64,000 bases of DNA from Escherichia phage adrianh. The position numbers and the translations under genes are program-made. Below the pieces are notes generated by a model. That model was not told the origin of the DNA, did no database searches, and worked only from the letters and a program-made list of their open reading frames with translations. The stretch is taken from the sequence record MN850614.1, one strand, 5' to 3'. Within the stretch, counting starts at the first letter, position 1. The number at the start of each line of letters is the position of its first letter. Below, one piece after another: positions 30,787-48,573 of the stretch.

Positions 30787-31057
30787 AGAGAAGTGGGAGA
30801 TTTTACCACTAGTCAGTGAGGGTGGTAATGGCTGTGAAATGTACATGATACGTGGGCATGTTCCAGAACCAATTGCACTTGAGATGGTAAACAATTTTAC
30901 AGATGGCTCTTACAAAGATTTAGGAGAACCAACTGTCAAGCAACAATGGGTTAAACCTGTACCAGACAGCACAGGTAACTGTAGTGTACTTTATCACGTT
31001 GTAGACCCTGCAAAATGCAAATCTGCAATGGCAGTAACAAACGTAACTTTTGATTGA
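30779..31057 (+). CDS. Hypothetical protein
   Basis: Start at ATG 30779 overlapping the upstream stop. Confidence 0.4.
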   Translation: MAKEKWEILPLVSEGGNGCEMYMIRGHVPEPIALEMVNNFTDGSYKDLGEPTVKQQWVKPVPDSTGNCSVLYHVVDPAKCKSAMAVTNVTFD

Positions 31058-31067
31058 GAGAAAAACT

Positions 31068-31949
31068 ATGAAGACATCTATTCGTGTTATAATTCATTCA
31101 CCGACAAAAGGGTCTCATGAAGAAGAGTTTAACATCATCCAGTTCCCTTCTGGTGAGATTGGTGGACACTTTTCACAAGAGCTTGTTGATTTTACTGCTT
31201 ATGCAGCATCATCTATCAACAATGTGATTATGATTGTAAAAGGTTATGATAAGGACACATTGTTTGCTGTGGCACTCGCTAAAGAAGCAATTGATGATTT
31301 AATTCCTCATGATTATGCCTTAAAGACTGTCATCTTTTACTACTTACCAAATGCACGATATGACCGTCACATGTTTAAAGGTGATGCAGCAGCTTTGAAG
31401 GTTTTTGCTAAACAGGTTAATGCAATGGGGTTTGGTGCAGTATGTGCAGTTGACCCTCACAGCTATGTACCAGATAACCTGTTTGACTGCTTCCAAAGTA
31501 TTCCTCAAAATGAAATTGCAGTCCACTATGCAAATGACCCACTGGTTGATTACTTAGTAGCCCCAGATGCAGGTGCTGCTAAGAAGATTGCAGAGACTGC
31601 TAAAGAGGTGGATAAACCATATATCACAATGTCTAAGGTGCGCAACCTTAAAACTGGTGAAATTACTGGTATGCGAATCCTTGATGATGTTGATTTGACC
31701 GATAAAACTGTTATGATTCTCGACGACATCTGTGATGGCGGTCGAACCTTCATAGAAGCAGCTAAACATCTTCGTGAAGCAGGTGCAAAACGTGTGGAAC
31801 TCTATGTAACACATGGTATCTTCTCTAAAGGGGTTGAAAACCTTCTTGACAATGGTATTGACCACATCTACACTACAAACTCTTTAGGGGAAGCTAAAGA
31901 CCGTGGTTTAACACATTATGGTCAAGTTACTGTAGCAAACCTTGATTAA
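31068..31949 (+). CDS. Ribose-phosphate pyrophosphokinase family protein (PRPP-synthetase-like)
   Basis: PRPP-synthetase-like segment MILDDICDGGRTFIEAAKHLREAGAKRVELYVTHGIFS; start placed at ATG 31068 with GAGAGAAAA RBS. Confidence 0.8.
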   Translation: MKTSIRVIIHSPTKGSHEEEFNIIQFPSGEIGGHFSQELVDFTAYAASSINNVIMIVKGYDKDTLFAVALAKEAIDDLIPHDYALKTVIFYYLPNARYDRHMFKGDAAALKVFAKQVNAMGFGAVCAVDPHSYVPDNLFDCFQSIPQNEIAVHYANDPLVDYLVAPDAGAAKKIAETAKEVDKPYITMSKVRNLKTGEITGMRILDDVDLTDKTVMILDDICDGGRTFIEAAKHLREAGAKRVELYVTHGIFSKGVENLLDNGIDHIYTTNSLGEAKDRGLTHYGQVTVANLD

Positions 31950-31957
31950 AACTTTAT

Positions 31958-31981
31958 AGGGGGCTTTCAAGCCCCATTTTG
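31958..31981 (+). terminator. Terminator-like hairpin
   Basis: GGGGC-TTTCAA-GCCCC hairpin followed by ATTTT. Confidence 0.45.
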
Positions 31982-31995
31982 AGAGAGATTAAAAG

Positions 31996-33777
31996 ATGAC
32001 TAAATCACTTTATGCAGTACCAGCAGGTTTAAACGCAGATGCTTACAAATCTGGTCATGTTTACCAGTACCCTAGTGCAACAGATTACTTGATGTTTAAC
32101 CTGACACCACGTAGTGATAAATGGTTTAACAGCCCTTTAGCAATTGATGGTGTAGTGGCTTTTGGTATTCAACGTTTTGTTAAAGATTACTTAATAGACC
32201 ACTGGAACGCCACCTTCTTTGAACGTGACAAAAAAGAAGCAATTGATGAAATCTTAGAAGTCATGAACGGTGTTCTGGGTAAAGATGCTATTGGTCGAGA
32301 ACATTGGGAAGCACTTCACGACTTAGGTTATCTACCAGTTGAAGTATACGCTGTAGAAGAAGGTACAGTTGTCCCTATGCGTGTTCCAATGATTGTATTC
32401 CAGAACACTGTTTCAGGTTTCCATTGGGTAGCGGGATATCTGGAAGATGCTTTCTCTGCTGAGATTTGGAAGGCTTGTACCATTGCAACTATTGCATTGC
32501 ACTACAAACGTATCTGTAAGAAGTGGTCTGACCTTACTTGTGACAACGACTTGCATTTACCTTATCAGTGCCATGACTTTGCTATGCGTGGTATGTCCGG
32601 CTTTACCGATGACGCATTTAACGCTGTAGGTCACTTAACCAGCTTTAAAGGGACTGATAGCTTCCCTGCTGTGTATACAGCTAAACGCATCTATGGGCAG
32701 TCCTATCCAATTTCCGATATTGGTGGTTCTGTACCAGCCACTGAACACTCTGTCATGTGTGCAAACATTGCTTGGGAAGGTGGGAATGAGTTAATTGAAG
32801 AAGAAAGACGCTTTAAAGGTGAGTTACAAACCTTCCGTCGTTTCTTAACAGAAACTTACCCAACTGGTATTGTAAGTATTGTTTCAGACACTTATAATTT
32901 CTGGAGAACTGTATCAGTGATACTCCCAGAACTCCGTAAAGAGATTATGGAACGTGATGGCAAACTGGTAATTCGTCCTGACTCTGGCGACCCTGTACAT
33001 ATTGTCACAGGTTATAAAGCAATCCACTTAGAGTGTGCTAAAAAGGCTTATTACGAACACCTAAGCAAGCTTGAAGCCAGCGACACAATGTTGAATACTG
33101 TTCTGAACATGAAGCTTGAAAACATCAACTACGGCATTGCTGGGTGGCTACTGTCAGAAGGTTACGAAATGGTTGTTGACAGAGAAGACTTTGAAGTTGC
33201 TGATACAGTGATGTTGAAAAATGCTTATATGGTTGGTTCTGCAAACGTTGTAACACGTCCTGTAGCAGAGATTGATGGAGCTATCAAGACACTGTATAAC
33301 ATCTTTGGGGGAACTATCAACTCTAAAGGTTTTAAAGTACTGGATGAGCACATCGGACTTATTTATGGTGACTCTATCACGTTGGAACGTGCAAACGAAA
33401 TCTTGAAGCGTTTGTATGAAATGGGTTTTGCAAGCTCTAACGTAGTGTTTGGTGTAGGCTCTTACACTTACCAGTACATGACTCGTGACACCTTTGCATT
33501 TGCTGTCAAAGCAACTCTTGCAAGCATTGGTGGTAAAGAGATTATGCTTGCAAAAGACCCTAAAACAGATAGTGGTGTTAAGAAATCTGCCTTTGGTGGT
33601 GTAGCACCTATGTGGGATGGTGATAAGCTGAAAGCTGTAGATGGCTATGGATTCCAGAGTTTTGCAGATGTACTTGACCACCAAGCTTGTGCTTTACGTT
33701 TAGTCTTTAGCGACTCTGAGCAGTTCGGTTATACAACTCTTGGAGATATTCGAAATAATATTGACAAGCAGCTTTAA
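31996..33777 (+). CDS. Nicotinamide phosphoribosyltransferase family protein (NAMPT-like)
   Basis: 593 aa; NAMPT-like motifs NADAYKSGHVYQYP, CHDFAMRGMSG, FKGTDS, VSDTYN, IRPDSGDP. Confidence 0.85.
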   Translation: MTKSLYAVPAGLNADAYKSGHVYQYPSATDYLMFNLTPRSDKWFNSPLAIDGVVAFGIQRFVKDYLIDHWNATFFERDKKEAIDEILEVMNGVLGKDAIGREHWEALHDLGYLPVEVYAVEEGTVVPMRVPMIVFQNTVSGFHWVAGYLEDAFSAEIWKACTIATIALHYKRICKKWSDLTCDNDLHLPYQCHDFAMRGMSGFTDDAFNAVGHLTSFKGTDSFPAVYTAKRIYGQSYPISDIGGSVPATEHSVMCANIAWEGGNELIEEERRFKGELQTFRRFLTETYPTGIVSIVSDTYNFWRTVSVILPELRKEIMERDGKLVIRPDSGDPVHIVTGYKAIHLECAKKAYYEHLSKLEASDTMLNTVLNMKLENINYGIAGWLLSEGYEMVVDREDFEVADTVMLKNAYMVGSANVVTRPVAEIDGAIKTLYNIFGGTINSKGFKVLDEHIGLIYGDSITLERANEILKRLYEMGFASSNVVFGVGSYTYQYMTRDTFAFAVKATLASIGGKEIMLAKDPKTDSGVKKSAFGGVAPMWDGDKLKAVDGYGFQSFADVLDHQACALRLVFSDSEQFGYTTLGDIRNNIDKQL

Positions 33778-34702: not shown

Positions 34703-37069
34703 ATGCGCATGGTAAATGACCACGCAGAAGTGATTAAGAGTTCAACTTCTTTAGAGACGTCTCAAGCACAGATTACAATGACACCCGAAATGTTCAGCCT
34801 TTTGAGTTCTGGTGTATACACCTTTAAAGAAAGGGCAGTTATTCGTGAACTGTCATGTAACGCAGTAGATGCTCAGAAAGAGGCTGGAAAAGAGAACATT
34901 CCGTTCCATGTGCATTTACCTACTCGTTTTGAGCCTTACTTTGAAGTTCGTGATTTTGGAACTGGATTGACTCATGATAAAGTTATGAGTTTGTATCTAA
35001 ACTACGGGGCTTCTACGAAGAATGACTCTAATGACTACATTGGTGCAATGGGTATCGGCTCAAAATCCCCATTTGCAATTGCTCAGTCATTCACAGTGTC
35101 CAGTTATGTTGATGGTGTTGTTAATAAGTACTCTGTTTATCTTGAGAATGGTATTCCTCAAGTAACTAAGCTGACCACCAACCCAACAAAAGAACCTAAT
35201 GGTTTAGCTGTACGTGTAGCAGTTGCTGACCATCGTATCTCAAAGTTCTTTGAAGAGGCTGGTCACGTATACTCATACTTTGCTGTAAAACCGGAAAGTA
35301 ATATCGAGTATGACGATGTATTGTCAGATATGAACGTCATTGCCCGTGAAGAAGGTGTTTATGATGCCATGATTCATAAGCAAAGCTGGCGTTCTAGTGG
35401 TAACAGGACAGAGTTTAATGTAGTGATGGGTAACATTGCCTACCCTGTTAACATGGAAGCATTACTTGGTGATGATTTCTTCAAAGTCTTGCCAGAATTT
35501 TTCCGTAGGAGCGTAGACCTTGTAAACATCTATATGCCTATTGGTTCAGTTGCTATTGCAGCTTCTCGTGAAGCATTGCAGATGAATGATACAACAAAAA
35601 ATGTTATCATTGAGGCTACTAAAAAGATAACTGAAGCAATTACAAAGGATGTTATCAAGAAAGTTAACAACCAACCTACACTCATGGATGCTGCACAGGC
35701 TTATGCTGAGTTACGTTTGAACTCACGAGAGATGTTTAATGCTGTGTGTCCAAAGCTAGAGTGGGGAGGCATTAAGCTTGATTCTCTGGAAGAAGAATTA
35801 CTAAACATTCGTCGTGGGATTATCTACGCAGAAGACGGCTCAGTCATTTATGAACGTGACGGTAAAGGTAATATCAAGGTTGATAGGAACGGGAACAATA
35901 TCCCTAAAGTGGATTATCTTTATAATCCAGTTGCTTATGTCAAGTTCAACTCTTTAGAGAGTAAGATTCGTGCAACAGCACTTTCCTACACTCAAGAGGC
36001 AAGTATGTTCAATATCTTTGGTGCAATGCGTAAAAGCCAAATTGAACAGTTTTTGTTCGTGATTAATGACCGTCGTAATAAAAATGGCACTGAGAAGACT
36101 GTAGGCCGCAATCAGATTCTGCGTGGTGCATGTCGAGACTACGCTAACGAGTCAAGCCTGTTCCACAGATACAATGGTATTGTGTTTGTATTCTCGACTG
36201 AAAAAGAGTTAGATGATTTAATCAATCTACACAAGCTTGATAAAAGTTTGTTAAAGATTGTGAAGATGTCTGATAAGGAACACCATTATCAGCGTAAAGA
36301 AGCTGTGAGGGGTGTTGTAAAACTCTGGAAAGCTGTTCCATCAGAAACTAAAGCTTCATACACAGAGGTGTCAGAAGACCTAGATACAATTGAAGAACCC
36401 CAGCTTTATATCAAGGCAGTAGGCGACACAGTTGATGGTGAATGTTTTTGCTCATCCCCAGAAGATGTAGCTAAAACAATTGCTAATGTTATAGGAAAAA
36501 CAGTCTATGTTTTCCGAAAAGCAAATTGGAAAAAGATACCAGAAGACTGGATTGAAGTAGATGAGAAGCTATTGAATGACAGCTTAACTGATGTTCACTG
36601 GATTAATCATAACAGGTATATGACACGTATCTATATGAATGGTGTCCTTGACCTTACAAGTAGTTGGATTATTGCCAGAAACTTTACGTTTAATAACAAG
36701 AAGATTTCTCGCGGGTATTGCTATTCACGAGATACAAACAAAACCATCTTCTTAGAAGGTAATGAGAATGCTGTTGAGGCAATGTTTGGTAAGATTCAGT
36801 ATGTGGCTGCACCGTTTGCATACACTTACACTATCAGTGTTCTTCAGGATTTGAAGTCATGCCTTGACAATGATACAAAACTGTACAAAAAGATTAAGAA
36901 AGCGGGTGACCGCATGGTTATCAAACTGACAAACTATCTTTCAAAAAGAAAACAAGAAAACTTCTTGCTTTCTCATTTAGATTGGAATAAAGTGTCACCC
37001 ATCGAAGTGAGTAAGTTCTTAGGTTTTGATGTGAAGTGTGTTCCAGAAGGAACTACAATTTACGATTAA
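34703..37069 (+). CDS. rIIA-like protein (GHKL/HSP90-type ATPase N-terminal domain)
   Basis: 788 aa; ATPase boxes ELSCNAVDA and DFGTGL ... GAMGIGSKS; paired with the following gene. Confidence 0.5.
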   Translation: MRMVNDHAEVIKSSTSLETSQAQITMTPEMFSLLSSGVYTFKERAVIRELSCNAVDAQKEAGKENIPFHVHLPTRFEPYFEVRDFGTGLTHDKVMSLYLNYGASTKNDSNDYIGAMGIGSKSPFAIAQSFTVSSYVDGVVNKYSVYLENGIPQVTKLTTNPTKEPNGLAVRVAVADHRISKFFEEAGHVYSYFAVKPESNIEYDDVLSDMNVIAREEGVYDAMIHKQSWRSSGNRTEFNVVMGNIAYPVNMEALLGDDFFKVLPEFFRRSVDLVNIYMPIGSVAIAASREALQMNDTTKNVIIEATKKITEAITKDVIKKVNNQPTLMDAAQAYAELRLNSREMFNAVCPKLEWGGIKLDSLEEELLNIRRGIIYAEDGSVIYERDGKGNIKVDRNGNNIPKVDYLYNPVAYVKFNSLESKIRATALSYTQEASMFNIFGAMRKSQIEQFLFVINDRRNKNGTEKTVGRNQILRGACRDYANESSLFHRYNGIVFVFSTEKELDDLINLHKLDKSLLKIVKMSDKEHHYQRKEAVRGVVKLWKAVPSETKASYTEVSEDLDTIEEPQLYIKAVGDTVDGECFCSSPEDVAKTIANVIGKTVYVFRKANWKKIPEDWIEVDEKLLNDSLTDVHWINHNRYMTRIYMNGVLDLTSSWIIARNFTFNNKKISRGYCYSRDTNKTIFLEGNENAVEAMFGKIQYVAAPFAYTYTISVLQDLKSCLDNDTKLYKKIKKAGDRMVIKLTNYLSKRKQENFLLSHLDWNKVSPIEVSKFLGFDVKCVPEGTTIYD

Positions 37070-37074
37070 AGTGT

Positions 37075-37104
37075 TTGACAAGGGGCTTCGAAGCCCCTTA
37101 GAAT
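37075..37104 (+). promoter_or_regulatory. Promoter-like element with palindromic spacer
   Basis: TTGACA, spacer formed by palindrome AGGGGCTTCGAAGCCCC, then TAGAAT; could equally be a weak terminator for the upstream gene. Confidence 0.35.
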
Positions 37105-37148
37105 AGCCTTACAAAATGATTTATTAACTAACAAGAGAGAGTAATAAG

Positions 37149-38258
37149 ATGACTACTAAAACTAAAGCACAGATTGACGCAGAAATTTACGAACTGGTTA
37201 AAGAAGGTAAGCTGACTAAAACAGCTATTGCACAGAAGTTCAATACTTCAACCCGTTCAGTTGGTCGTGCTGTAGAGCGTCATGAAGCAACCTTAAAAGG
37301 TAAGAAAAAGGTAGCTTCTAAACCAGCTACGAAGACTTTGAAGCAAGTTGCTAAATCAGTTAAAAAGAAAGCTGACAAACCAGTTGAAAAGGTTGTTAAA
37401 GAGCCTGTACAGAAAGCTCCGGTAAATAAACTGCATGAAGCTATGCAGAATGGCAACCAGATTGAGTACATGATTACTGGCGACTCTGTTATCATGACTT
37501 TCGGTGCAGATTCTGAAATCGTTGAATCTACCCATCCGAACTACAAAGAAATCGTGATGGCTGTTGTATCCGGTGAGTATAAGAAAGCTTTCGAACTGAT
37601 GAACATTCGTAAGTCTATCGAAAACTTCACTCAGGGTGCTATCACCATCAAAGGTGACAAGTTATTCTATGGTGCTGTTGAGATGCGTTCTACTCTGGTT
37701 GACCGTATTCTTCACATGATGAAGACTGGAGATAAGGGTTTTGAACGCCTTGTGATGTTCTTCGAAAAACTGATGGAAAACCCATCTAAAGACTCTGTAG
37801 AACAACTTTGGGGATTCGTATCTCACCTTGATGTTGAAATTGATGAAGAAGGCTACATCATTGGTTGGAAGAAAGTCTCTACTCATGAAGGCAAGCTGGT
37901 TGACTCCCACACCTACAGAGTACCTAATGATTTGGGTAACATTGTAGAAATGCCACGTTGGATGGTTGATAATAACCGTAACGTGACTTGCTCTCAGGGT
38001 CTTCACGTTGGTGCTTGGGATTATGTTCGTTGCTTCTCAGGTGATACAATCCTGAAGGTTCGTGTCCATCCACGAGATGTTGTATCTGTTCCAACTGATT
38101 ACAACGATATGAAGATGCGTTCGTCTCGTTATGAAGTTGCAGCAATCGTTGATAATCAACGTAAAGTGCTGAAAGAATGGGATGGCAAGACTGAAGCTTT
38201 GCATGTCATCGTTGGCACTGCTGGTGAACTAATCTCCCAACGTAAACGTGAAATCTAA
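37149..38258 (+). CDS. rIIB-like protein
   Basis: 369 aa immediately downstream of the rIIA-like gene; assignment by position and size only. Confidence 0.4.
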   Translation: MTTKTKAQIDAEIYELVKEGKLTKTAIAQKFNTSTRSVGRAVERHEATLKGKKKVASKPATKTLKQVAKSVKKKADKPVEKVVKEPVQKAPVNKLHEAMQNGNQIEYMITGDSVIMTFGADSEIVESTHPNYKEIVMAVVSGEYKKAFELMNIRKSIENFTQGAITIKGDKLFYGAVEMRSTLVDRILHMMKTGDKGFERLVMFFEKLMENPSKDSVEQLWGFVSHLDVEIDEEGYIIGWKKVSTHEGKLVDSHTYRVPNDLGNIVEMPRWMVDNNRNVTCSQGLHVGAWDYVRCFSGDTILKVRVHPRDVVSVPTDYNDMKMRSSRYEVAAIVDNQRKVLKEWDGKTEALHVIVGTAGELISQRKREI

Positions 38259-38274
38259 TAAGTAATTTCTTAAA

Positions 38275-38358: not shown

Positions 38359-38907
38359 ATGAAGAAATTGATTCTAGGTTTGTGCTTAATGTTTACAGCA
38401 CACTTATCTTATGCAGTTGACTGCCCAGAGCTATCAATTAGCCAAAAAGTAAACATGTTAAAAGCTTACCAGTATGGTGAGAATAACATGGGTAAAGGTT
38501 GGGGTATCACTCTAGCTGCTATAGCCTTACAAGAGTCAGAGTTAGGTCTGAAGGTAGAGAATAAAAAGACACATGATTATGGTATCTTCCAGAATCACTT
38601 GAAGACTGTTGTAAAGCGTAACAAAATCAGTCCTAATGTGGCTAAAAAGAAACTCTTAAAAGACTTTGACTATGCTGCTAAGGAAACTCACAAAGAGCTT
38701 GAGTTTTGGACAAAGGTGCATGGTCAGCCAAAGTCAAAGAAGACTTTACAAAAAGTCTTAGCATCATATAATGCTGGGTATTCGTACAGAATCCCTAAAG
38801 CTAAGAAATATTCTCAAGATGTTTATAACAATATGAAAGTAATTGCTCAATGTGAATTTGCAACAAACATTTCTAAGGTAAACCATGAAAAAATTAAGAA
38901 AGTCTGA
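38359..38907 (+). CDS. Secreted lytic-transglycosylase-like protein
   Basis: 182 aa; signal peptide MKKLILGLCLMFTAHLSYA; LQESELG ... DYGIFQ resembles the SLT catalytic region. Confidence 0.5.
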   Translation: MKKLILGLCLMFTAHLSYAVDCPELSISQKVNMLKAYQYGENNMGKGWGITLAAIALQESELGLKVENKKTHDYGIFQNHLKTVVKRNKISPNVAKKKLLKDFDYAAKETHKELEFWTKVHGQPKSKKTLQKVLASYNAGYSYRIPKAKKYSQDVYNNMKVIAQCEFATNISKVNHEKIKKV

Positions 38908-39580
38908 TGAAGTATTGTGCCATGCTTATGACTTACATCCTCATGAGTTAGTTCTTGATTCCTGTGTATGGACTCCAGAACAGTGCAGGGATTTTGAAGA
39001 CACCGCAAGAGAAGTTGTATGTTCACTTGAAGAGTTCCACACATCAGAGCCAATTGTGAATGTTGTAGATAAAGAGACTGGACAAACTATAGGTGTAAGT
39101 CGTGATAGCTTAGTCATAGTCAATAAAGACCTTGTAGAAAAAGGTAACCTCATCTTAGCAGATATTGATGGTGTTCTTACAAATTTTAATCACGAAGATT
39201 GCTCAACGGAATTGACTGATGGGTCATTCTCACAGTACACTAATCTTCTTGACTCTGTAAGAGCAAAACCAACGTATGTCTTTAGTATTATTGATGCAAT
39301 TGCTAATCATGCTGCCATTGGACTCTTGACAGCGAGAGGTGAATCTCAGAGAATACCTACTGAGATGTTTTTAAGGCACAATATAGAGCATGATTACTTG
39401 CTTTTTATGCGTGGTTTTGGAACTAACTCTATAAGTGCAGAAAGTTTGAAAGTGAGGATGATTCAGTCTTGCATTCTTCCTTACTTTAATATAGTATGTT
39501 TTATAGAAGATACAGAGAAGAATGTTCAGAAGGTAAACAGAATCCTTCCACACATTAAAACCATGTTAGTTAAACACTGA
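38885..39580 (+). CDS. HAD-family hydrolase-like protein
   Basis: 231 aa; ILADIDGVL resembles HAD motif I (DxDG). Confidence 0.35.
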   Translation: MKKLRKSDEVLCHAYDLHPHELVLDSCVWTPEQCRDFEDTAREVVCSLEEFHTSEPIVNVVDKETGQTIGVSRDSLVIVNKDLVEKGNLILADIDGVLTNFNHEDCSTELTDGSFSQYTNLLDSVRAKPTYVFSIIDAIANHAAIGLLTARGESQRIPTEMFLRHNIEHDYLLFMRGFGTNSISAESLKVRMIQSCILPYFNIVCFIEDTEKNVQKVNRILPHIKTMLVKH

Positions 39581-41212: not shown

Positions 41213-41414
41213 AAAGACACGGAAAATTATCCGGTCAGCAGTATTTATTGGAAGAAATGAAGTGATTCCTTTTACAGCAAATGATGTGATAGTCTACAGG
41301 AAAAAATTAGCATTCAGTTATTGCTTACGTGGCTTTATCTCCCAGCCATTAGAAGATTTTAAAAATCGTTGTGGTAAAGGCATCATCATTCAAGAGGCAA
41401 TTATTCATGGCTGA
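41187..41414 (+). CDS. Hypothetical protein
   Basis: 75 aa. Confidence 0.35.
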   Translation: MKVILARDKKTRKIIRSAVFIGRNEVIPFTANDVIVYRKKLAFSYCLRGFISQPLEDFKNRCGKGIIIQEAIIHG

Positions 41415-41607
41415 CTTCTGCAAAGACTGTGCTATCGAGATGTTTGGACGTGATACAGGTGATTTAAAAGGTCTTATCACTGAAGATGACTTTAAAGCTG
41501 GCTATGCAATGCCAGTAATCTGTGAAGGTTGTGGATGTATCTGGGTAGACCACGAAGGACAGCGTGTAAAACCTTCAGAAGATAAAGAATCTTGGGAGAG
41601 ATGCTAA
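41371..41607 (+). CDS. Hypothetical small cysteine-rich protein
   Basis: 78 aa; CKDC ... CEGCGC. Confidence 0.35.
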   Translation: MVKASSFKRQLFMADFCKDCAIEMFGRDTGDLKGLITEDDFKAGYAMPVICEGCGCIWVDHEGQRVKPSEDKESWERC

Positions 41608-42393
41608 ATGGGTATTGTAAAAATCATCAATGGTGATATCTTTGCAGCATTTGATAAAGGTAAGTTTGATGTCATCGGTCACGGTTGCAACTGTATGAAC
41701 TTAATGGGCGCAGGTATCGCTGACAAGATTTCCAAACTTTACCCAAAAGCATATGAGACCGACACAGAAGTTTATATGTATGCAGGTGGTATAGGACACA
41801 AACCCTGTGAAAATTTACTGGGTAATTTCTCTGTAGCACGTTTAAAACAAGGTCGTATAGCTAACCTTTACACTCAGCTTAAGACTGGTAAAGATGCCCG
41901 ATACAGTGCTTTAGAGTCATCTTTGAAGCAGCTTAACAGATACTGTGAAGTCAATCAGTTGAAGAAAGTAGGGTTACCTATGATTGGTGCAGGTATCGGT
42001 GGGCTAGACCCTCAAGCCGTCACAGTTATCATTAATCAGGTGATGAAGAGTGTAGATGTGTATCTATATGTCTATGAAGGAGAGATGTACCACAAGTTAT
42101 GCTCAGGTTGGAAGAACTACTGTGAACCAGAATACTTTGCAGGTGTAGCAGTGTTCACGGATAATGCAGTTACCCTCTTCAGACGAAGAAAGGGTAAGAT
42201 ACATCAAAGTAACCCTCCGGTTGAAAAGATGTCTCTAAGTAACGCTCTAGTTACCCACCTGTCGAAGAGCAATCACAGAATTGCAGTAACATTTGGCAGT
42301 GATGCAGATGCTTATATCTATGCAAGAACTGATGAGGATATCGAGTTAATCTTCTCTTCACCAGAGCTTACCTTCTTAGACGCAAAGAACTAA
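41608..42393 (+). CDS. Macro-domain protein (ADP-ribose binding/processing)
   Basis: 261 aa; N-terminal macro-domain-like segment INGDIF ... GHGCNCMNLMGAGIA. Confidence 0.55.
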   Translation: MGIVKIINGDIFAAFDKGKFDVIGHGCNCMNLMGAGIADKISKLYPKAYETDTEVYMYAGGIGHKPCENLLGNFSVARLKQGRIANLYTQLKTGKDARYSALESSLKQLNRYCEVNQLKKVGLPMIGAGIGGLDPQAVTVIINQVMKSVDVYLYVYEGEMYHKLCSGWKNYCEPEYFAGVAVFTDNAVTLFRRRKGKIHQSNPPVEKMSLSNALVTHLSKSNHRIAVTFGSDADAYIYARTDEDIELIFSSPELTFLDAKN

Positions 42394-42461
42394 GAAACTT
42401 CGTAGTATATTCACAATAGACTAAGCCTTTCTTATCTGGTAAATTTTTCAGGTAAGGAGGG

Positions 42462-42650
42462 TTTTTTCATTTCAGATTTGTGCAGGTAGAGTTCTGTAGA
42501 GAAATCTATAGAGAAAATTTTGAACTCCAAAGAGAAAATTCATTTTCAAACTGTGCAGGTAATCTCCAAAGGGTTTTTTTCATTTTCAAAACGTGCAGAG
42601 AAAAATCAGGTCGGGCAAGAAAAATCATTTTAGAATTGTGCAGGTAGGTG
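42462..42650 (+). repeat. Four direct repeats, consensus TCATTTYMRA-N-TGTGCAGGTA
   Basis: Copies at about 42462, 42536, 42574 and 42620 in an ORF-free stretch after the macro-domain gene. Confidence 0.6.
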
Positions 42651-42902: not shown

Positions 42903-43109
42903 ATGCTTTACAGTCGCGAATTGATGGTTACAACTAACATTAACACAAAGGCAAAACGTTTTTACATGCAAATCTGTGGCGTATGGTCTAGAATATCAGA
43001 GACTGACTATTGCAACTATGTAGAAACGGCTATAAACTCTAATTGCTACCTTACAAGAAATACAAGAAAGTACATAAGACAGACAGCAATTTATTACTAC
43101 GATAAATAA
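42903..43109 (+). CDS. Hypothetical small protein
   Basis: 68 aa ORF with AGGAGAATC... GGAGAA-like RBS upstream; low support. Confidence 0.3.
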   Translation: MLYSRELMVTTNINTKAKRFYMQICGVWSRISETDYCNYVETAINSNCYLTRNTRKYIRQTAIYYYDK

Positions 43110-43197
43110 AGTACTTTACAAGGGGCTTATAGTTCGATAAAGTAAGCCCCAGATAAAGAGCTTTACCAAATTAACCCTTAAACTAGGAGATTCAAAA
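43109..43197 (+). promoter_or_regulatory. Type A cassette, copy 1 (promoter-like, stem-loop, RBS)
   Basis: AAGTACTTTACAAGGGGCTTATAGTTCGATAAAGTAAGCCCCAGATAAAGAGCTTTACC ... GGAGA ... ATG; TTTACA-N17-TAAAGT with GGGGCTTA/TAAGCCCC stem. Confidence 0.55.
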
Positions 43198-43581
43198 ATG
43201 GCATATCGTGCACCGAAATTCATCAACAAAGACAACTTTCGCAAAGTACTGGAGAAGTCACTTGATGAGAATTTTAAAGGCAACATTATTGTTGTTCACG
43301 CATTCAATTTTAAGTATGATGTAAACGGGAATAGAATCAACCATTACACGGCAACCATGTTAGACGGTACACTATCAAGTGAAAAAGCCGTACTGAATGC
43401 ACTAGCAGGACGCGGAAAAGTATTAGTAAGATGTGATAAGCGACGTTATCAGGGTGGCGCATATGGTTATGATGATGCTGTTTATCATCTTGAAAATATG
43501 GGCTATAAAGTAGAAAAAGCTGGAGTATCGCAAATCATCGGGAGCGATGGTTATGTAACAATCTTCAAAATTAACGAATAA
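43198..43581 (+). CDS. Hypothetical protein (small-gene array 1)
   Basis: 127 aa; starts Met-Ala directly after cassette A. Confidence 0.55.
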   Translation: MAYRAPKFINKDNFRKVLEKSLDENFKGNIIVVHAFNFKYDVNGNRINHYTATMLDGTLSSEKAVLNALAGRGKVLVRCDKRRYQGGAYGYDDAVYHLENMGYKVEKAGVSQIIGSDGYVTIFKINE

Positions 43582-43667
43582 AGTACTTTACAAGGGGCTT
43601 ATAGTTCGATAAAGTAAGCCCCAGATAAAGAGCTTTACCACTAAATCCTAAATTGGAGAACTTAAAA
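43581..43667 (+). promoter_or_regulatory. Type A cassette, copy 2
   Basis: Near-identical to copy 1. Confidence 0.55.
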
Positions 43668-43901: not shown

Positions 43902-43925
43902 CATTAACTGGAAATTTAATCTGAT

Positions 43926-44012
43926 AAAGTACTTTACATGGGGTTTAAAAGTTGATATCTTAAGCCCCAGATAAAGAGCTTTACCACTCAATCCTAAACT
44001 GGAGATTCAAAA
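43926..44012 (+). promoter_or_regulatory. Type A cassette, copy 3 (variant)
   Basis: Variant stem GGGGTTTA/TAAGCCCC (a C-to-T change that still pairs as G-U). Confidence 0.5.
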
Positions 44013-44525
44013 ATGAAAACTGTAGACGCTACTTTTGAAGTTGTAAAAGAAAAATTCACCATTATCTATGAAGCGGTAAATTGCTTTGAAGCAAGCCATA
44101 ATCTTGATAATTGGAAGTTTACAGATGACCATCAAGGCGGTGTGACTATTAAAAATCCTAACTGTCAGCGTAACGATTTTAAATATGCAATTCCTTTAAA
44201 TTATAGCCTTAAGCAGCTTTCTAGTGACTATGCAAAACAAGGCCGGGAAAACCCATCAAAAGAGGCTTATATCAGCTTACAGGAAGAACTAGAAAGAGAT
44301 TTAGAGGCTTCAGAGTACAACCTTGCCGCGAAAGTTGTGGATGCAAACGGTAACACGGTTTTAGAAAGTTTTTATCTTGGTTATGCTTTCGATTGGTGCT
44401 ATCGTGACGGCGATGATTTAGAGGATAGACTAAAAGAAGAGGTGAGCAATTCAGACGCAGAAACTGAAGTATTAGAACGTTTGGAATCGTTGAAAGACTC
44501 AGTGATGAATATCTTTAAGAACTAA
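44013..44525 (+). CDS. Hypothetical acidic protein (small-gene array 3)
   Basis: 170 aa. Confidence 0.55.
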   Translation: MKTVDATFEVVKEKFTIIYEAVNCFEASHNLDNWKFTDDHQGGVTIKNPNCQRNDFKYAIPLNYSLKQLSSDYAKQGRENPSKEAYISLQEELERDLEASEYNLAAKVVDANGNTVLESFYLGYAFDWCYRDGDDLEDRLKEEVSNSDAETEVLERLESLKDSVMNIFKN

Positions 44526-45240: not shown

Positions 45241-45328
45241 TTTTGGTTTTTAAAACAAGTAAATTACTAATCAACGGGAGGTAATAACCTCCCCACTAAG
45301 TAAAATCCTTAAACTAGGAGCTTTTAAA
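45236..45328 (+). promoter_or_regulatory. Type B cassette, copy 1
   Basis: CTTGATTTTGGTTTTTAAAACAAGTAAATTACTAATCAACGGGAGG-loop-CCTCCCC ACTAA ... AGGAG ... ATG. Confidence 0.55.
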
Positions 45329-45601
45329 ATGTACACTACTAACAACGGTCGCACCTTAAACGTAACCCTACGCCACTACATGAACGGCGTAATGCACTTC
45401 GAGGATTTACAAGCCGAACAACATATCTTAGATTGGCAACTTGCAGGACTACAAAAAACTGCTACAGGATACGGGAAAAAGATTCCAACCAGTTGGAAAG
45501 TATACTACGAAGGCCGTTTGCGCAGAATTTATCAGGATGTGCAAAGCAATAGCGCATTGAGTTACATCATAGTAAAAGGTAAAAAGCTGCATTTAGTATA
45601 A
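45329..45601 (+). CDS. Hypothetical protein (small-gene array 6)
   Basis: 90 aa. Confidence 0.5.
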   Translation: MYTTNNGRTLNVTLRHYMNGVMHFEDLQAEQHILDWQLAGLQKTATGYGKKIPTSWKVYYEGRLRRIYQDVQSNSALSYIIVKGKKLHLV

Positions 45602-45687
45602 AGTACTTTACAAGGGGCTTATAGTTCGATAAAGTAAGCCCCAGATAAAGAGCTTTACCACTAAATCCTAAATTGGAGAACTTAAAA
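45601..45687 (+). promoter_or_regulatory. Type A cassette, copy 5
   Basis: Near-identical to copy 1. Confidence 0.55.
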
Positions 45688-46098: not shown

Positions 46099-46193
46099 AT
46101 CTTGATTTTGGTTTTTAAAACAAGTAAATTACTAATCAACGGGAGGTAATAGCCTCCCCACTAAACAAAGTCCTTAAACTAGGAGATTCAAAA
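46099..46193 (+). promoter_or_regulatory. Type B cassette, copy 2
   Basis: Same sequence as type B copy 1, including the upstream CTTGATTTTGGTTTTTAAAA. Confidence 0.55.
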
Positions 46194-46397
46194 ATGGCTA
46201 TTATTAACGGTTTAACCATTGAAACTACACACATCAAAGATATTAAAGTCGGTGATGTAGTTCTCTTTCACGGCGTAGAAAAAACCGTCACGGCGAAAGA
46301 TATTACAGAGGACTCCTTCATGGGTAGGTCACTCTTCGGTGATTCTTATTGCTTAGGTTACCGTGCAGTTTTAAAAGTTGTAAAAAATAACCGATAA
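46194..46397 (+). CDS. Hypothetical protein (small-gene array 8)
   Basis: 67 aa. Confidence 0.45.
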   Translation: MAIINGLTIETTHIKDIKVGDVVLFHGVEKTVTAKDITEDSFMGRSLFGDSYCLGYRAVLKVVKNNR

Positions 46398-46482
46398 AGT
46401 ACTTTACAAGGGGCTTATAGTTCGATAAAGTAAGCCCCAGATAAAGAGCTTTACCACTAAATCCTAAATTGGAGATTCTAAA
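46397..46482 (+). promoter_or_regulatory. Type A cassette, copy 6
   Basis: Near-identical to copy 1. Confidence 0.55.
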
Positions 46483-47025
46483 ATGAAATGCTTTCACGGT
46501 ACTACCCAAGAAAATTTCCTCAACCTGATTAATAACGGTGACAAGCCATCAGGTGCATGGAATTGTTCGGATATGGACGGCAATTTTTACGTGTACCCAG
46601 AAAATAAAATCTATGGCGACGATGAGGAAGAGATAATCTCTGAAGGTATCCAGCAAGCGTTAGGTAATGCCACTATTACGGCCGCTTTCCAGATGAAAAC
46701 CCAAAATATTGTTATCTTAGAACTTGATATCCCAGAGGATGACCTAAATGACGATTATTCTTGTGATAATATGTCTGGCGTAGCAAGTTTTACAGAATAC
46801 TTCGATTTAAATTGGATTAAAAAGGTTTACGTAACAGAGTTTAACGCTATGTATTCGCCTTTTTGTCTTCCTTCATTGGATAACCCAAATTTAAATTATC
46901 TTGATGAGTCTCTGGAGCTTCTTGCTAAAAGTGTCCAACAGTCGGACAGTATTCAGGTTTTTTGTGACATCATGGACACACTAACGGGAAACATCGCAGA
47001 AGAGGATTTAAAGAGCTTTTTCTAA
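46483..47025 (+). CDS. Hypothetical acidic protein (small-gene array 9)
   Basis: 180 aa. Confidence 0.55.
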   Translation: MKCFHGTTQENFLNLINNGDKPSGAWNCSDMDGNFYVYPENKIYGDDEEEIISEGIQQALGNATITAAFQMKTQNIVILELDIPEDDLNDDYSCDNMSGVASFTEYFDLNWIKKVYVTEFNAMYSPFCLPSLDNPNLNYLDESLELLAKSVQQSDSIQVFCDIMDTLTGNIAEEDLKSFF

Positions 47026-47818: not shown

Positions 47819-47902
47819 TGTTCGAGGGGGTTTATCTAAAAGGGATTAACTTAAAAGATTCTTTATAGATAAACTTAAAAAATTGCTTGCAATCAGATAT
47901 CA

Positions 47903-47978
47903 AAACAAGTAAATTACTAATCAACGGGAGGTAATAGCCTCCCCACTAAACAAAGTCCTTAAACTAGGAGATTCAAAA
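47903..47978 (+). promoter_or_regulatory. Type B cassette, copy 4
   Basis: GGGAGGTAATAGCCTCCCC hairpin with conserved flanks. Confidence 0.55.
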
Positions 47979-48509
47979 ATGAACAAATTTCAAGCTATCA
48001 ACTACATTCGCTCAAATGCTGTAATGTCTAAGCCTGTTAAAGATACCTATGAATTTCGCTGCAATGGGGTACACTTTGCAACCATCACTAAATCAGAAAA
48101 CGGGGCTTATTACGTTCATCGTCGTAATGTTGCAACCGTTGTAGTCTCTCACTTTATGCAAGCTGTAGCAGAGTTATTACCGCTATTCTTAGGGATTTAC
48201 TTGGATGAGTGTAAAAACGTTCACAACCACGTTAAAAACCTTTTAAACGGTTATAAAATGGCTTATGAACGTTCTATCAAGTCCTTAAACAAGTTCTATA
48301 AAGCCCCTGTAAATACTGTTTCAATGGCCTACGCTGCAAATGGTGAAAGAGTAAACCTATCCGATGTGGAAGATATCGAGCTTTACGACCATCGGCCTAA
48401 CGGTTACTCTCAGACACTCGGTGAAGGTTTAACGTTCAATATCAAGAACTTAGAAAAAACTTTAAAAGATATTGAAAAAGATATTGACGAGACAATCAAA
48501 AATCTGTAA
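47979..48509 (+). CDS. Hypothetical protein (small-gene array 12)
   Basis: 176 aa. Confidence 0.55.
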   Translation: MNKFQAINYIRSNAVMSKPVKDTYEFRCNGVHFATITKSENGAYYVHRRNVATVVVSHFMQAVAELLPLFLGIYLDECKNVHNHVKNLLNGYKMAYERSIKSLNKFYKAPVNTVSMAYAANGERVNLSDVEDIELYDHRPNGYSQTLGEGLTFNIKNLEKTLKDIEKDIDETIKNL

Positions 48510-48573
48510 ATTACTAATCAACGGGAGGTAATAGCCTCCCCACTAAACAAAGTCCTAAACTGGAGTTATCAAG
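48500..48573 (+). promoter_or_regulatory. Type B cassette, copy 5
   Basis: Overlaps the stop of the upstream gene; hairpin conserved. Confidence 0.5.

Follow-up and report, generated by a model that had tools for sequence, protein, structure and literature searches.

The 64,000-nucleotide stretch of the Escherichia phage adrianh genome analysed here (MN850614.1; hereafter the window) belongs to a Felixounavirus and is about 94% identical to Bas63. On its plus strand (41608-42393), it encodes a 261-aa protein composed of an N-terminal macro domain and a C-terminal domain found only in Ounavirinae. The protein is probably an active hydrolase acting at C1'' of ADP-ribose, which the phage would use to counter DarTG2, aRES or both of these bacterial defence systems. 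As a Gln-type ALC1-like macrodomain hydrolase fused to a lineage-specific C-terminal domain, it would be catalytically competent and cleave a substituent on the C1'' of ADP-ribose, and its gene would be a dispensable accessory gene in a counter-defence role. Its primary and ancestral job may resemble that of AdfM of phage T4, i.e., the stripping of DarT2-type ADP-ribose from thymidines of replicating phage DNA, an assignment that is put forward tentatively. The same pocket is very probably also able to dephosphorylate ADP-ribose-1''-phosphate (ADPR-1''-P), as does the phage enzyme Adpp, and this reaction would let the unlinked NARP1 enzymes of the phage rebuild NAD+ after an aRES attack. That the dephosphorylation of ADPR-1''-P is the function under selection is possible but somewhat doubtful, and it is compatible with the removal of DarT2 marks rather than exclusive of it.

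The enzyme class is ordinary and well known. Annotations of the gene can already be found in hundreds of genomes, and each of the two candidate functions was described for a homolog in 2025-2026. What is new here is the association of a conserved enzyme with an orphan, fast-evolving C-terminal domain, the position of the gene away from NARP1 and the swapping of alleles at the locus.

The macro domain and its active site

The open reading frame (ORF) at 41608-42393 (+) starts with ATG and contains 261 codons and a stop, in agreement with the original prediction, whose quoted motifs are found at residues 7-12 (INGDIF) and 24-38 (GHGCNCMNLMGAGIA). The prediction of a macro domain was borne out by profile searches: Pfam PF01661 (Macro) aligns over profile positions 2-117 of 118 with protein residues 25-141 (E=6.9e-8, 32.9 bits, for a gathering cut-off of 22), and the PHROG_335 ('phosphatase') profile matches the protein over its full length (E=3e-112). 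The best match in a defence library was DarG, whose models cover the macro part only (NCBIfam, 1e-12; PADLOC, 2e-13). An AlphaFold2 model of the protein, built with 19 homologs as input, reached a predicted local distance difference test (pLDDT) of 85.9 and a predicted template modelling score (pTM) of 0.86. The model shows the three-layer alpha/beta/alpha macro fold, with template modelling (TM) scores of 0.67-0.83 against TARG1, DarG, Poa1p and viral Mac1 domains. Its N-terminal ~157 residues superpose on TARG1 (TM 0.82), on DarG macrodomains (0.75-0.78) and on Poa1p (0.74), over about 155-175 columns. Residues 1-157 of the 261-aa protein are a bona fide macro domain, and no chance resemblance. 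This macro module (41608..42078, +) is a Gln-type, ALC1-like/TARG1-class macrodomain of PHROG_335, as indicated by Pfam, the modelled fold, BLASTP and the ratio of nonsynonymous to synonymous substitution rates (dN/dS). It is followed by a linker helix (residues 158-169; 42079..42114, +), of which DSSP assigns residues 158-167 as helical in the model.

Conservation of the active site was assessed in a 20-sequence family alignment and then counted over 140 distinct family members. Nine residues that are invariant in the 20 sequences (H25, N28, G36, A38, P46, G72, Q90, P124 and G127) are all kept in the window protein. Over the larger set, N28 is conserved in 140/140 members, Q90 in 138/140 and H25 in 133/140. 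In the family alignments, P124, G127, G129 and G132 show little or no variation. H25-G26-C27-N28 form the catalytic 'H-x-C-N' motif (41680..41691, +), conserved in the family, in which H25 and N28 align with H24 and N27 of the Adpp of Vibrio phage Gary. Q90 (41875..41877, +) takes the place of the catalytic Lys found in TARG1 (K84, which it faces in the family profile alignment) and in DarG (K80). The equivalents of N28 and Q90 in the macrodomain protein SCO6735 are N27 and Gln85, respectively, and the pair would position the distal ribose as in that enzyme. Q90 is followed by a loop with the basic residues K92, K95 and R98, and the macro module as a whole is basic, with an isoelectric point (pI) of 8.8. 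The glycine-rich diphosphate-binding loop, I126-G-A-G-I-G-G132, is present within P124-P135, 'PMIGAGIGGLDP' (41977..42012, +). According to the family alignment, GGLDP stands there instead of GGDW, and the conserved Trp is missing: of the 140 members, 106 have W at position 135, whereas the Ounavirinae clade has P, S, I, A or G. The catalytic residues, which the original prediction had left to be verified, are in place, since those essential in Adpp (His and Asn) and in SCO6735 (Asn and Gln) all have their counterparts in H25, N28 and Q90. From its residues, the catalytic apparatus appears compatible with both documented activities of the class, the hydrolysis of ADP-ribosyl (ADPr)-thymidine and the dephosphorylation of ADPR-1''-P.

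The C-terminal domain and replacement of the locus

The C-terminal domain (residues ~170-261; 42115..42390, +) is modelled as six beta-strands and one helix, an orphan fold present in Ounavirinae macro proteins only. No PDB structure covers this C-terminal third (~95 aa) in a fold search of the AlphaFold2 model, and no sequence or fold relative was detected outside Ounavirinae. The architecture in which a macro domain is joined to this orphan domain is unique to Ounavirinae, and the C-terminal domain, which was absent from the original prediction, is the only unusual part of the protein. It is probably a specificity or partner-binding module and not a second enzyme.

Several candidate relatives of the domain were rejected. 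The ~100-aa C-terminus of the Kolesnikvirus ortholog gave an hhalign probability of 0.07% against the window profile. A 114-aa protein (P0032) considered as a free-standing version of the domain starts inside the last macro strand, and hence corresponds to a shortened ORF. Multi-stretch matches in proteins of 900-2800 aa were treated as spurious.

In three relatives, the identity of the C-terminal domain is 57%, 20% and 13%, versus 81%, 53% and 43% for the macro module. Its pI spans 4.7 to 9.6 among relatives, which argues against a generic nucleic-acid-binding role. Estimates of dN/dS were obtained by the Nei-Gojobori method over 30 alleles, with close and distant pairs treated separately. 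The macro module had a dN/dS of 0.027 in close pairs and 0.155 in distant pairs, the C-terminal domain one of 0.196 and 0.50, respectively. The protein is under strong purifying selection, and both domains are constrained coding sequence, the C-terminal domain being about seven-fold less constrained than the macro module. Positive selection was sought gene-wide in these 30 alleles and none was found, dN/dS being below 1 throughout; therefore, the fast evolution of the C-terminal domain is not callable as adaptive by this test.

The locus also differs between close relatives. In three Felixounavirus genomes (L005, L114 and L115), both flanks are 93-94% identical to the window at the nucleotide level, with no nucleotide similarity across 41750-42580, where the allele encodes a 42%-identical protein (P0009 type). 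The dissimilar stretch comprises most of the macro gene and ~190 nt downstream, and its left breakpoint falls directly after the conserved GAGIA motif. The difference is a cassette-like allelic replacement within the genus, as is often observed at counter-defence loci, and such a swap in otherwise 93-94% identical genomes bears the signature of an arms race.

The PHROG_335 family and its characterised members

A tblastn search with the macro module found relatives in 2845 of 50,697 phage records, with full-length coverage in 256 only. The remaining relatives, among them the T4-like 'Tk.4 phosphatase', share 30-38% identity with residues ~3-160. The PHROG_335 profile matches T4 Tk.4 (1e-65) and the Adpps of Gary (1e-49) and of the Pakpunavirus JG004 (9e-61). 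In BLASTP, the window protein is 34% identical to Tk.4 (E=2e-24) over residues 3-157 versus 2-152, i.e., the whole macro module, and 28% identical to Gary Adpp (E=5e-14), while Tk.4 and Gary Adpp share 35% identity. The solved structures best matched by the family profile are BT1257 (2AFC/2FG1) and SCO6735 (5E3B), with E-values of about 1e-21 to 1e-22.

Two phage members of the family have been associated with counter-defence. T4 tk.4, renamed AdfM, was the single T4 gene found by HIDEN-SEQ to be conditionally essential under DarTG2, and its clean knockout sensitised the phage; the removal of ADP-ribose from DNA by AdfM was inferred, not measured (10.1101/2025.11.20.689424). The second, Adpp, counteracts aRES, a RES-domain defence of E. 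coli, Klebsiella and Enterobacter that phosphorolyses NAD+ into nicotinamide and ADPR-1''-P. NARP1, which consists of Adps and Namat, fails alone against aRES, ADPR-1''-P being unusable by NARP1, and about 15% of NARP1 operons have a Macro gene, encoding Adpp, within two genes. Purified Adpp of Vibrio phage Gary converts ADPR-1''-P into ADP-ribose, and its deletion, or the mutation H24A or N27A, abolishes the anti-aRES effect (10.64898/2026.01.28.702374). The window gene is absent from Table S1 of that study by Osterman et al., where there are no Escherichia or Salmonella phages (10.64898/2026.01.28.702374); this absence is expected because the gene sits outside the two-gene neighbourhood of the census. 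Among cellular relatives, the Gln-type ALC1-like macrodomain SCO6735 of S. coelicolor cleaves ADPr-thymidine made by DarT; its Gln85 and Asn27 are essential, and basic loop residues help to bind DNA (PMC9411070).

About 200 Escherichia, Salmonella and Shigella phages, Bas63/JohannRWettstein among them, are 92-96% identical to the window in this region, and the window gene is the ortholog of bas63_0095, annotated 'putative phosphatase'. In the part of the PhageMaP data that covers Bas63 gene 95, its knockout had a fitness of +0.6 to +1.1 (values <0 denoting essential genes) in four laboratory strains and in the rows consulted of the 33-system Gao panel. The Bas63 macro ortholog is dispensable and its knockout viable. 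The 33 systems of the Gao panel include neither DarTG nor aRES. A literature search for Bas63 or any Felixounavirus challenged with DarTG or aRES returned nothing, and the phage panel used with aRES is without a Felixounavirus.

The window also encodes a NARP1 pair on the plus strand, Adps (PRPP-synthetase-like; 31050-31949; Pfam Pribosyltran/Pribosyl_synth) and Namat (NAMPT-like; 31996-33777; Pfam NAPRTase/NAMPT_N). These are orthologs of Bas63 g79 and g80, which were shown experimentally to counter Sir2-HerA. The pair is a possible metabolic partner of the macro protein, with no physical linkage to it: the macro gene is 7.8 kb downstream, and 14 annotated genes lie between them (rIIA, rIIB, SLT-like, PNK, i-/o-spanins and small ORFs). 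A consensus scan, whose hits are pattern matches only, placed two terminator-like hairpins in the interval from NARP1 to the macro gene, at 38272 and 40066, and another with a T-run 30 nt past the macro stop (42423..42464, +). Because of these hairpins, the macro gene looks like the last gene of a unit starting at the spanins, a predicted unit separate from that of NARP1. The original prediction, which placed the gene in the same plus-strand block as the NAD+ genes, thus stands for orientation but not for linkage.

In other phages, macro and NARP1 genes can be adjacent. A Namat homolog is found within 10 kb at 15 of the 80 IMG/VR loci encoding family members. At some of these loci (L032, L066 and L083/84), the macro gene lies between Adps and Namat, as it does in Vibrio phage Gary, and Vibrio phage Chester (L003:4129-7135) has the order Adps, macro, NAPRTase-like; Chester, L032, L066 and L083 each have a clear three-gene NARP1-AP operon. 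The macro gene is 6-8 kb from NARP1 at two further loci (L060 and L077), so that a 'split' arrangement exists outside Ounavirinae too. In a neighbour-joining tree, the Ounavirinae proteins bearing the C-terminal domain form their own clade and the T4 clade is separate, whereas the NARP1-linked members are scattered over several clades. This scatter argues for a phosphatase activity shared across the family rather than confined to a single subfamily, and suggests that ADPR-1''-P would be a substrate family-wide. An assignment of the window protein to an 'Adpp' or 'AdfM' subfamily was dropped, the tree being star-like and unbootstrapped and the Adpps polyphyletic.

Divergent relatives keep the synteny of Adps, Namat, rIIA/B, PNK, spanin and macro genes, as seen with P0009 (42% identity), P0013 (35%) and the Kolesnikvirus protein (43% for the macro part). 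Ounavirinae make up about a fifth of Adps-carrying phage records, and ~252 phage records have an Ounavirinae-type Adps versus 256 with a full-length macro protein. However, this synteny is conserved by descent across Ounavirinae, so that the occurrences are not independent. Co-occurrence with NARP1, complete but vertical, was therefore rejected as functional evidence, since it provides no independent support for a functional link.

Candidate functions and rival explanations

A role like that of AdfM is preferred for several reasons. The family is far more widespread than NARP1, the macro gene is unlinked to NARP1, and the nearest characterised homolog in BLASTP is Tk.4, from a phage without NARP1. 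In addition, the N...Q pair matches that of SCO6735, and a macro domain with a swappable, fast-evolving C-terminus suits a variable protein target better than a metabolite phosphatase. An anti-DarTG2 role would also be in line with the pI of the macro module and with the K/R-rich loop after Q90, which resembles the DNA-binding loop of SCO6735.

A number of observations weigh against this assignment, or against the broader proposal of a C1'' hydrolase directed at DarTG2 or aRES. In the sister clade P0010-P0018, the macro modules have an acidic pI (5.6-6.9), which means that a basic DNA-binding surface is not conserved, and in T4 Tk.4 the loop following the Gln is devoid of basic residues. The Ounavirinae clade departs from two conserved motifs, the 'GD..KLG' loop, which becomes 'GGIGHKPCENLLG', and 'GGDW', which becomes 'GGLDP'; hence, its substrate preference may differ from that of both characterised relatives, AdfM (Tk.4) and Adpp. 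The AdfM and Adpp assignments each come from one preprint, the enzymatic step of AdfM being itself inferred there, and the star-like, unbootstrapped tree places the window clade with neither of them. As regards the Adpp role, the gene is 14 genes away from NARP1 with terminator-like sites in between, and every known Adpp consists of a single domain of about 150-170 aa. Moreover, the Kolesnikvirus ortholog, a syntenic protein of 260 aa (Erwinia phage vEam_W_28, L086:12998-13780; also L116 and L117), has a Gln ('GQGCNC') in place of the catalytic His whose change to Ala kills Adpp. Gln is also found at the His position in four single-domain family members (L011, L043, L051 and L057).

Among the rival explanations, the gene could be an unlinked Adpp whose selected function is that of an ADPR-1''-P phosphatase, after which the phage Adps and Namat (31050-33777) would rebuild NAD+, and Ounavirinae would carry a 'split' NARP1-AP. 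This is a real possibility, although a doubtful one. The protein belongs to the same PHROG as Adpp and has both residues mutated there, and the phage carries NARP1, which is functional in its Bas63 orthologs. NARP1 alone fails against aRES, a system that occurs in enterobacteria, and because metabolites diffuse, operon linkage is mechanistically unnecessary, other family loci being themselves 6-8 kb from NARP1 (L060, L077). The near one-to-one numbers of Adps and full-length macro records and the long-standing 'phosphatase' annotation, which comes from the Appr-1''-p motif, fit as well. However, the gene lies outside the operon, in another predicted unit with the spanin cluster, and the co-occurrence represents vertical inheritance in one subfamily. 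Kolesnikvirus orthologs have Gln instead of the His, it is not obvious why a metabolite phosphatase would require allele swapping or an additional domain that evolves fast, and the BLASTP similarity to Gary Adpp is below that to T4 Tk.4. The original prediction of a broader ADP-ribose/NAD+ counter-defence capacity has hence gained a direct precedent in a homolog of the same PHROG that shares both catalytic residues. Its link to the window gene is a putative one: the gene is outside the NARP1 operon, in a separate predicted unit and not in the census, and co-occurs with NARP1 by shared ancestry. An AdfM-type anti-DarTG2 role is an equally well-supported alternative. From these sequence comparisons, the cognate defence would lie between the two candidates, with either DarT-modified DNA or ADPR-1''-P as the substrate.

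The remaining explanations depart further from the known phage enzymes. The protein could erase other marks, i.e., ADP-ribosylation of proteins or RNA left by a host ADP-ribosyltransferase (ART) toxin (CmdT-type on mRNA, ParT/Tre1-type on protein) or by a phage ART, or O-acetyl-ADP-ribose (OAADPr) produced by sirtuins. Macro domains are generally promiscuous, the nearest solved relatives, TARG1 and SCO6735, act on protein-linked ADP-ribose too, and TARG1/OARD1 deacetylates OAADPr. However, no ART gene was detected in the neighbourhood, a search for an ART or Tpt1 partner in the Gp107 ortholog and neighbouring ORFs having found nothing at the sequence level. Phage members have so far no such phenotype, their supported functions being directed at DarTG2 and aRES, which makes this explanation quite unlikely. 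A binding-only module, acting as a non-catalytic sponge for ADP-ribose or a nucleotide signal or as a stoichiometric toxin inhibitor, is very unlikely. The alteration of two conserved motifs in the Ounavirinae clade could be read as lost catalysis, SCO6735, DarG and AdfB of ICP1 can inhibit DarT through direct interaction, and the fast-evolving C-terminal domain suits binding; yet H25, N28 and Q90 are retained, the glycine-rich loop is intact, and the dN/dS of 0.027 is typical of an enzyme. Finally, it is highly improbable that the protein clears by-products of RNA repair, i.e., that it disposes, like Poa1p, of ADPR-1''-P derived from ADP-ribose 1'',2''-cyclic phosphate (Appr>p) after a Tpt1-type 2'-phosphotransferase has acted in tRNA repair with the nearby polynucleotide kinase (PNK)-like gene. 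Poa1p is a structural and sequence relative, the PNK/HAD_PNKP-like gene (38885-39580) is 2 kb upstream, and PhageMaP described Bas63 Gp107 (window 46483-47025) as having a 'slight' structural resemblance to the NAD-binding domain of RNA 2'-phosphotransferase. However, searches of Pfam, PDB and annotated PHROGs with the Gp107 ortholog gave no sequence support for Tpt1, the block yielded no identifiable RNA ligase, and ADPR-1''-P clearance is not known to matter for fitness in bacteria. T4 tRNA repair, furthermore, proceeds without Tpt1.

An extension of the proposed C1'' hydrolase can also be envisaged, in which the C-terminal domain would be a diversifying, swappable module that binds a DarT-type toxin or the aRES NADase, or docks onto a phage partner. 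In that case, enzymatic reversal and stoichiometric neutralisation would be united in one protein, a 'two-pronged' inhibitor that resembles DarG by convergence. Retargeting to host variants would underlie the allele swap and the non-homologous Kolesnikvirus C-terminus, and Ounavirinae would run a split NARP1-AP in parallel. This scheme is considered unlikely.

Genome context

Immediately upstream of the macro gene, a 66-aa ORF with a CxxC...CxxC (zinc-ribbon-like) sequence (41407..41607, +; PHROG_2210, with no function assigned) has a stop codon that abuts the macro ATG (TAAATG), and the two genes are probably translationally coupled. A gene of the same size occupies this position in L005, and the divergent L004 lineage has a different 63-aa 2xCxxC protein in its place (L004:9810-10001). 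The 2xCxxC ORF may encode a zinc-ribbon protein that is conserved as a partner of the macro protein, or the arrangement may be coincidental.

Between NARP1 and the macro gene, rIIA-like (788 aa) and rIIB-like (369 aa) genes are located at 34703-38258 (+). A Pfam search of the rIIA-like protein gave no match. PhageMaP found their Bas63 orthologs, g84 and g85, to be co-essential against the qatABCD defence, and hence the block from NARP1 to the macro gene is itself rich in counter-defence functions.

Downstream of the macro gene, an intergenic repeat of ~112 nt is present in five copies that are 73-100% identical (43084-43195, 43556-43667, 43902-44013, 45576-45687 and 46372-46483). Each copy ends exactly where a small plus-strand ORF starts (43198, 43653, 44013, 45673 and 46483). 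The copies are presumably promoter/ribosome-binding-site cassettes repeated along an array of small early genes, and minus-strand 'ORFs' with ...FKFSNLGFSGKALYLGLTLSNYKPLVKYFI... are artefacts of these repeats. A 61-nt repeat occurs four times at 93-100% identity (45252-45312, 46117-46177, 47902-47962 and 48499-48559); it contains a GGGAGG-taata-CCTCCC hairpin and lies inside a longer repeat of ~118 nt. These elements are probably terminators or regulatory elements repeated between the same small genes.

The last of the small ORFs listed above (46483-47025, +) is the ortholog of Bas63 Gp107. According to PhageMaP, Gp107 is more essential on E. coli S17-1, and its 'slight' structural similarity is to a domain of the ART fold. 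Searches of Pfam, PDB and annotated PHROGs with the ortholog gave no match. Should Gp107 use NAD enzymatically, ADP-ribose derivatives could come from the phage itself.

Implications

As common coliphages and Salmonella phages, felixounaviruses serve in typing and therapy, with Bas63 as a NARP1 model. If the macro protein dephosphorylates ADPR-1''-P, NARP1-bearing enterobacterial phages would already be armed against aRES although they are outside the published operon-based census, and the prediction of counter-defence would need genome-wide co-occurrence instead of adjacency. Should the split NARP1-AP be true, roughly another fifth of Adps-carrying records would be added to the published 15% of NARP1 phages equipped against aRES. 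If DarT2 marks are reversed, instead or in addition, AdfM-type protection would extend to a second large group of coliphages. Either way, the combination of a conserved enzyme with a swappable, fast-evolving orphan domain provides a tractable system for studying how phage erasers gain target specificity.

Comparison with known systems

The window protein and T4 Tk.4/AdfM both belong to PHROG_335, have the H-G-C-N-C...NLYTQ...IGAGIG motifs in common and are encoded by non-essential accessory genes of virulent coliphages. However, Tk.4 is a single domain of 155 aa, to which the window protein adds an orphan domain of ~95 aa. Furthermore, T4 is without NARP1, Tk.4 keeps the 'GD.TKLG' and 'GNW' motifs that are changed in the window protein, and the two clades are separate in the tree. 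Gary Adpp (KNV71_gp137) is of the same PHROG, its H24/N27 correspond to H25/N28, and both phages encode Adps and Namat. In contrast to the window gene, which is 14 genes off in another unit, Adpp genes are located within two genes of Adps/Namat, the criterion of operon membership, and often between them, and their products are single-domain proteins of 150-170 aa.

SCO6735 and BT1257 share with the window protein the Asn...Gln arrangement that replaces the Lys of TARG1/DarG and the basic loop after the Gln. They differ from it in being cellular and single-domain, and SCO6735 has a Val where the window protein has Gly26. The hydrolysis of ADPr-thymidine in DNA is proven for SCO6735, with which the window protein was compared by sequence. 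Human TARG1/OARD1 is the top structural match (TM 0.82, E=1e-9) and, like yeast Poa1p (TM 0.74), which is an ADPR-1''-P phosphatase, belongs with the window protein to the ALC1-like class. The sequence identity to TARG1 and Poa1p is only 21-25%, and the catalytic dyad K84/D125 of TARG1 is replaced by Q90/G131.

The antitoxin DarG is more distant in its details. The NCBIfam model NF048014 scores 47.7 bits against a 250-bit equivalog cut-off and aligns over profile positions 12-151 of 338 only, the PADLOC model over positions 14-146 of 329 only. The catalytic Lys80 (Taq) is replaced by Gln90, the window protein's C-terminal domain is unrelated in sequence and much shorter, and the neighbours of its gene are small phage ORFs and spanins, with no adjacent darT. 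Nevertheless, DarG and the window protein are both built of an N-terminal macro domain, superposing with TM 0.75-0.78, followed by an extra C-terminal domain, which in DarG binds DarT.

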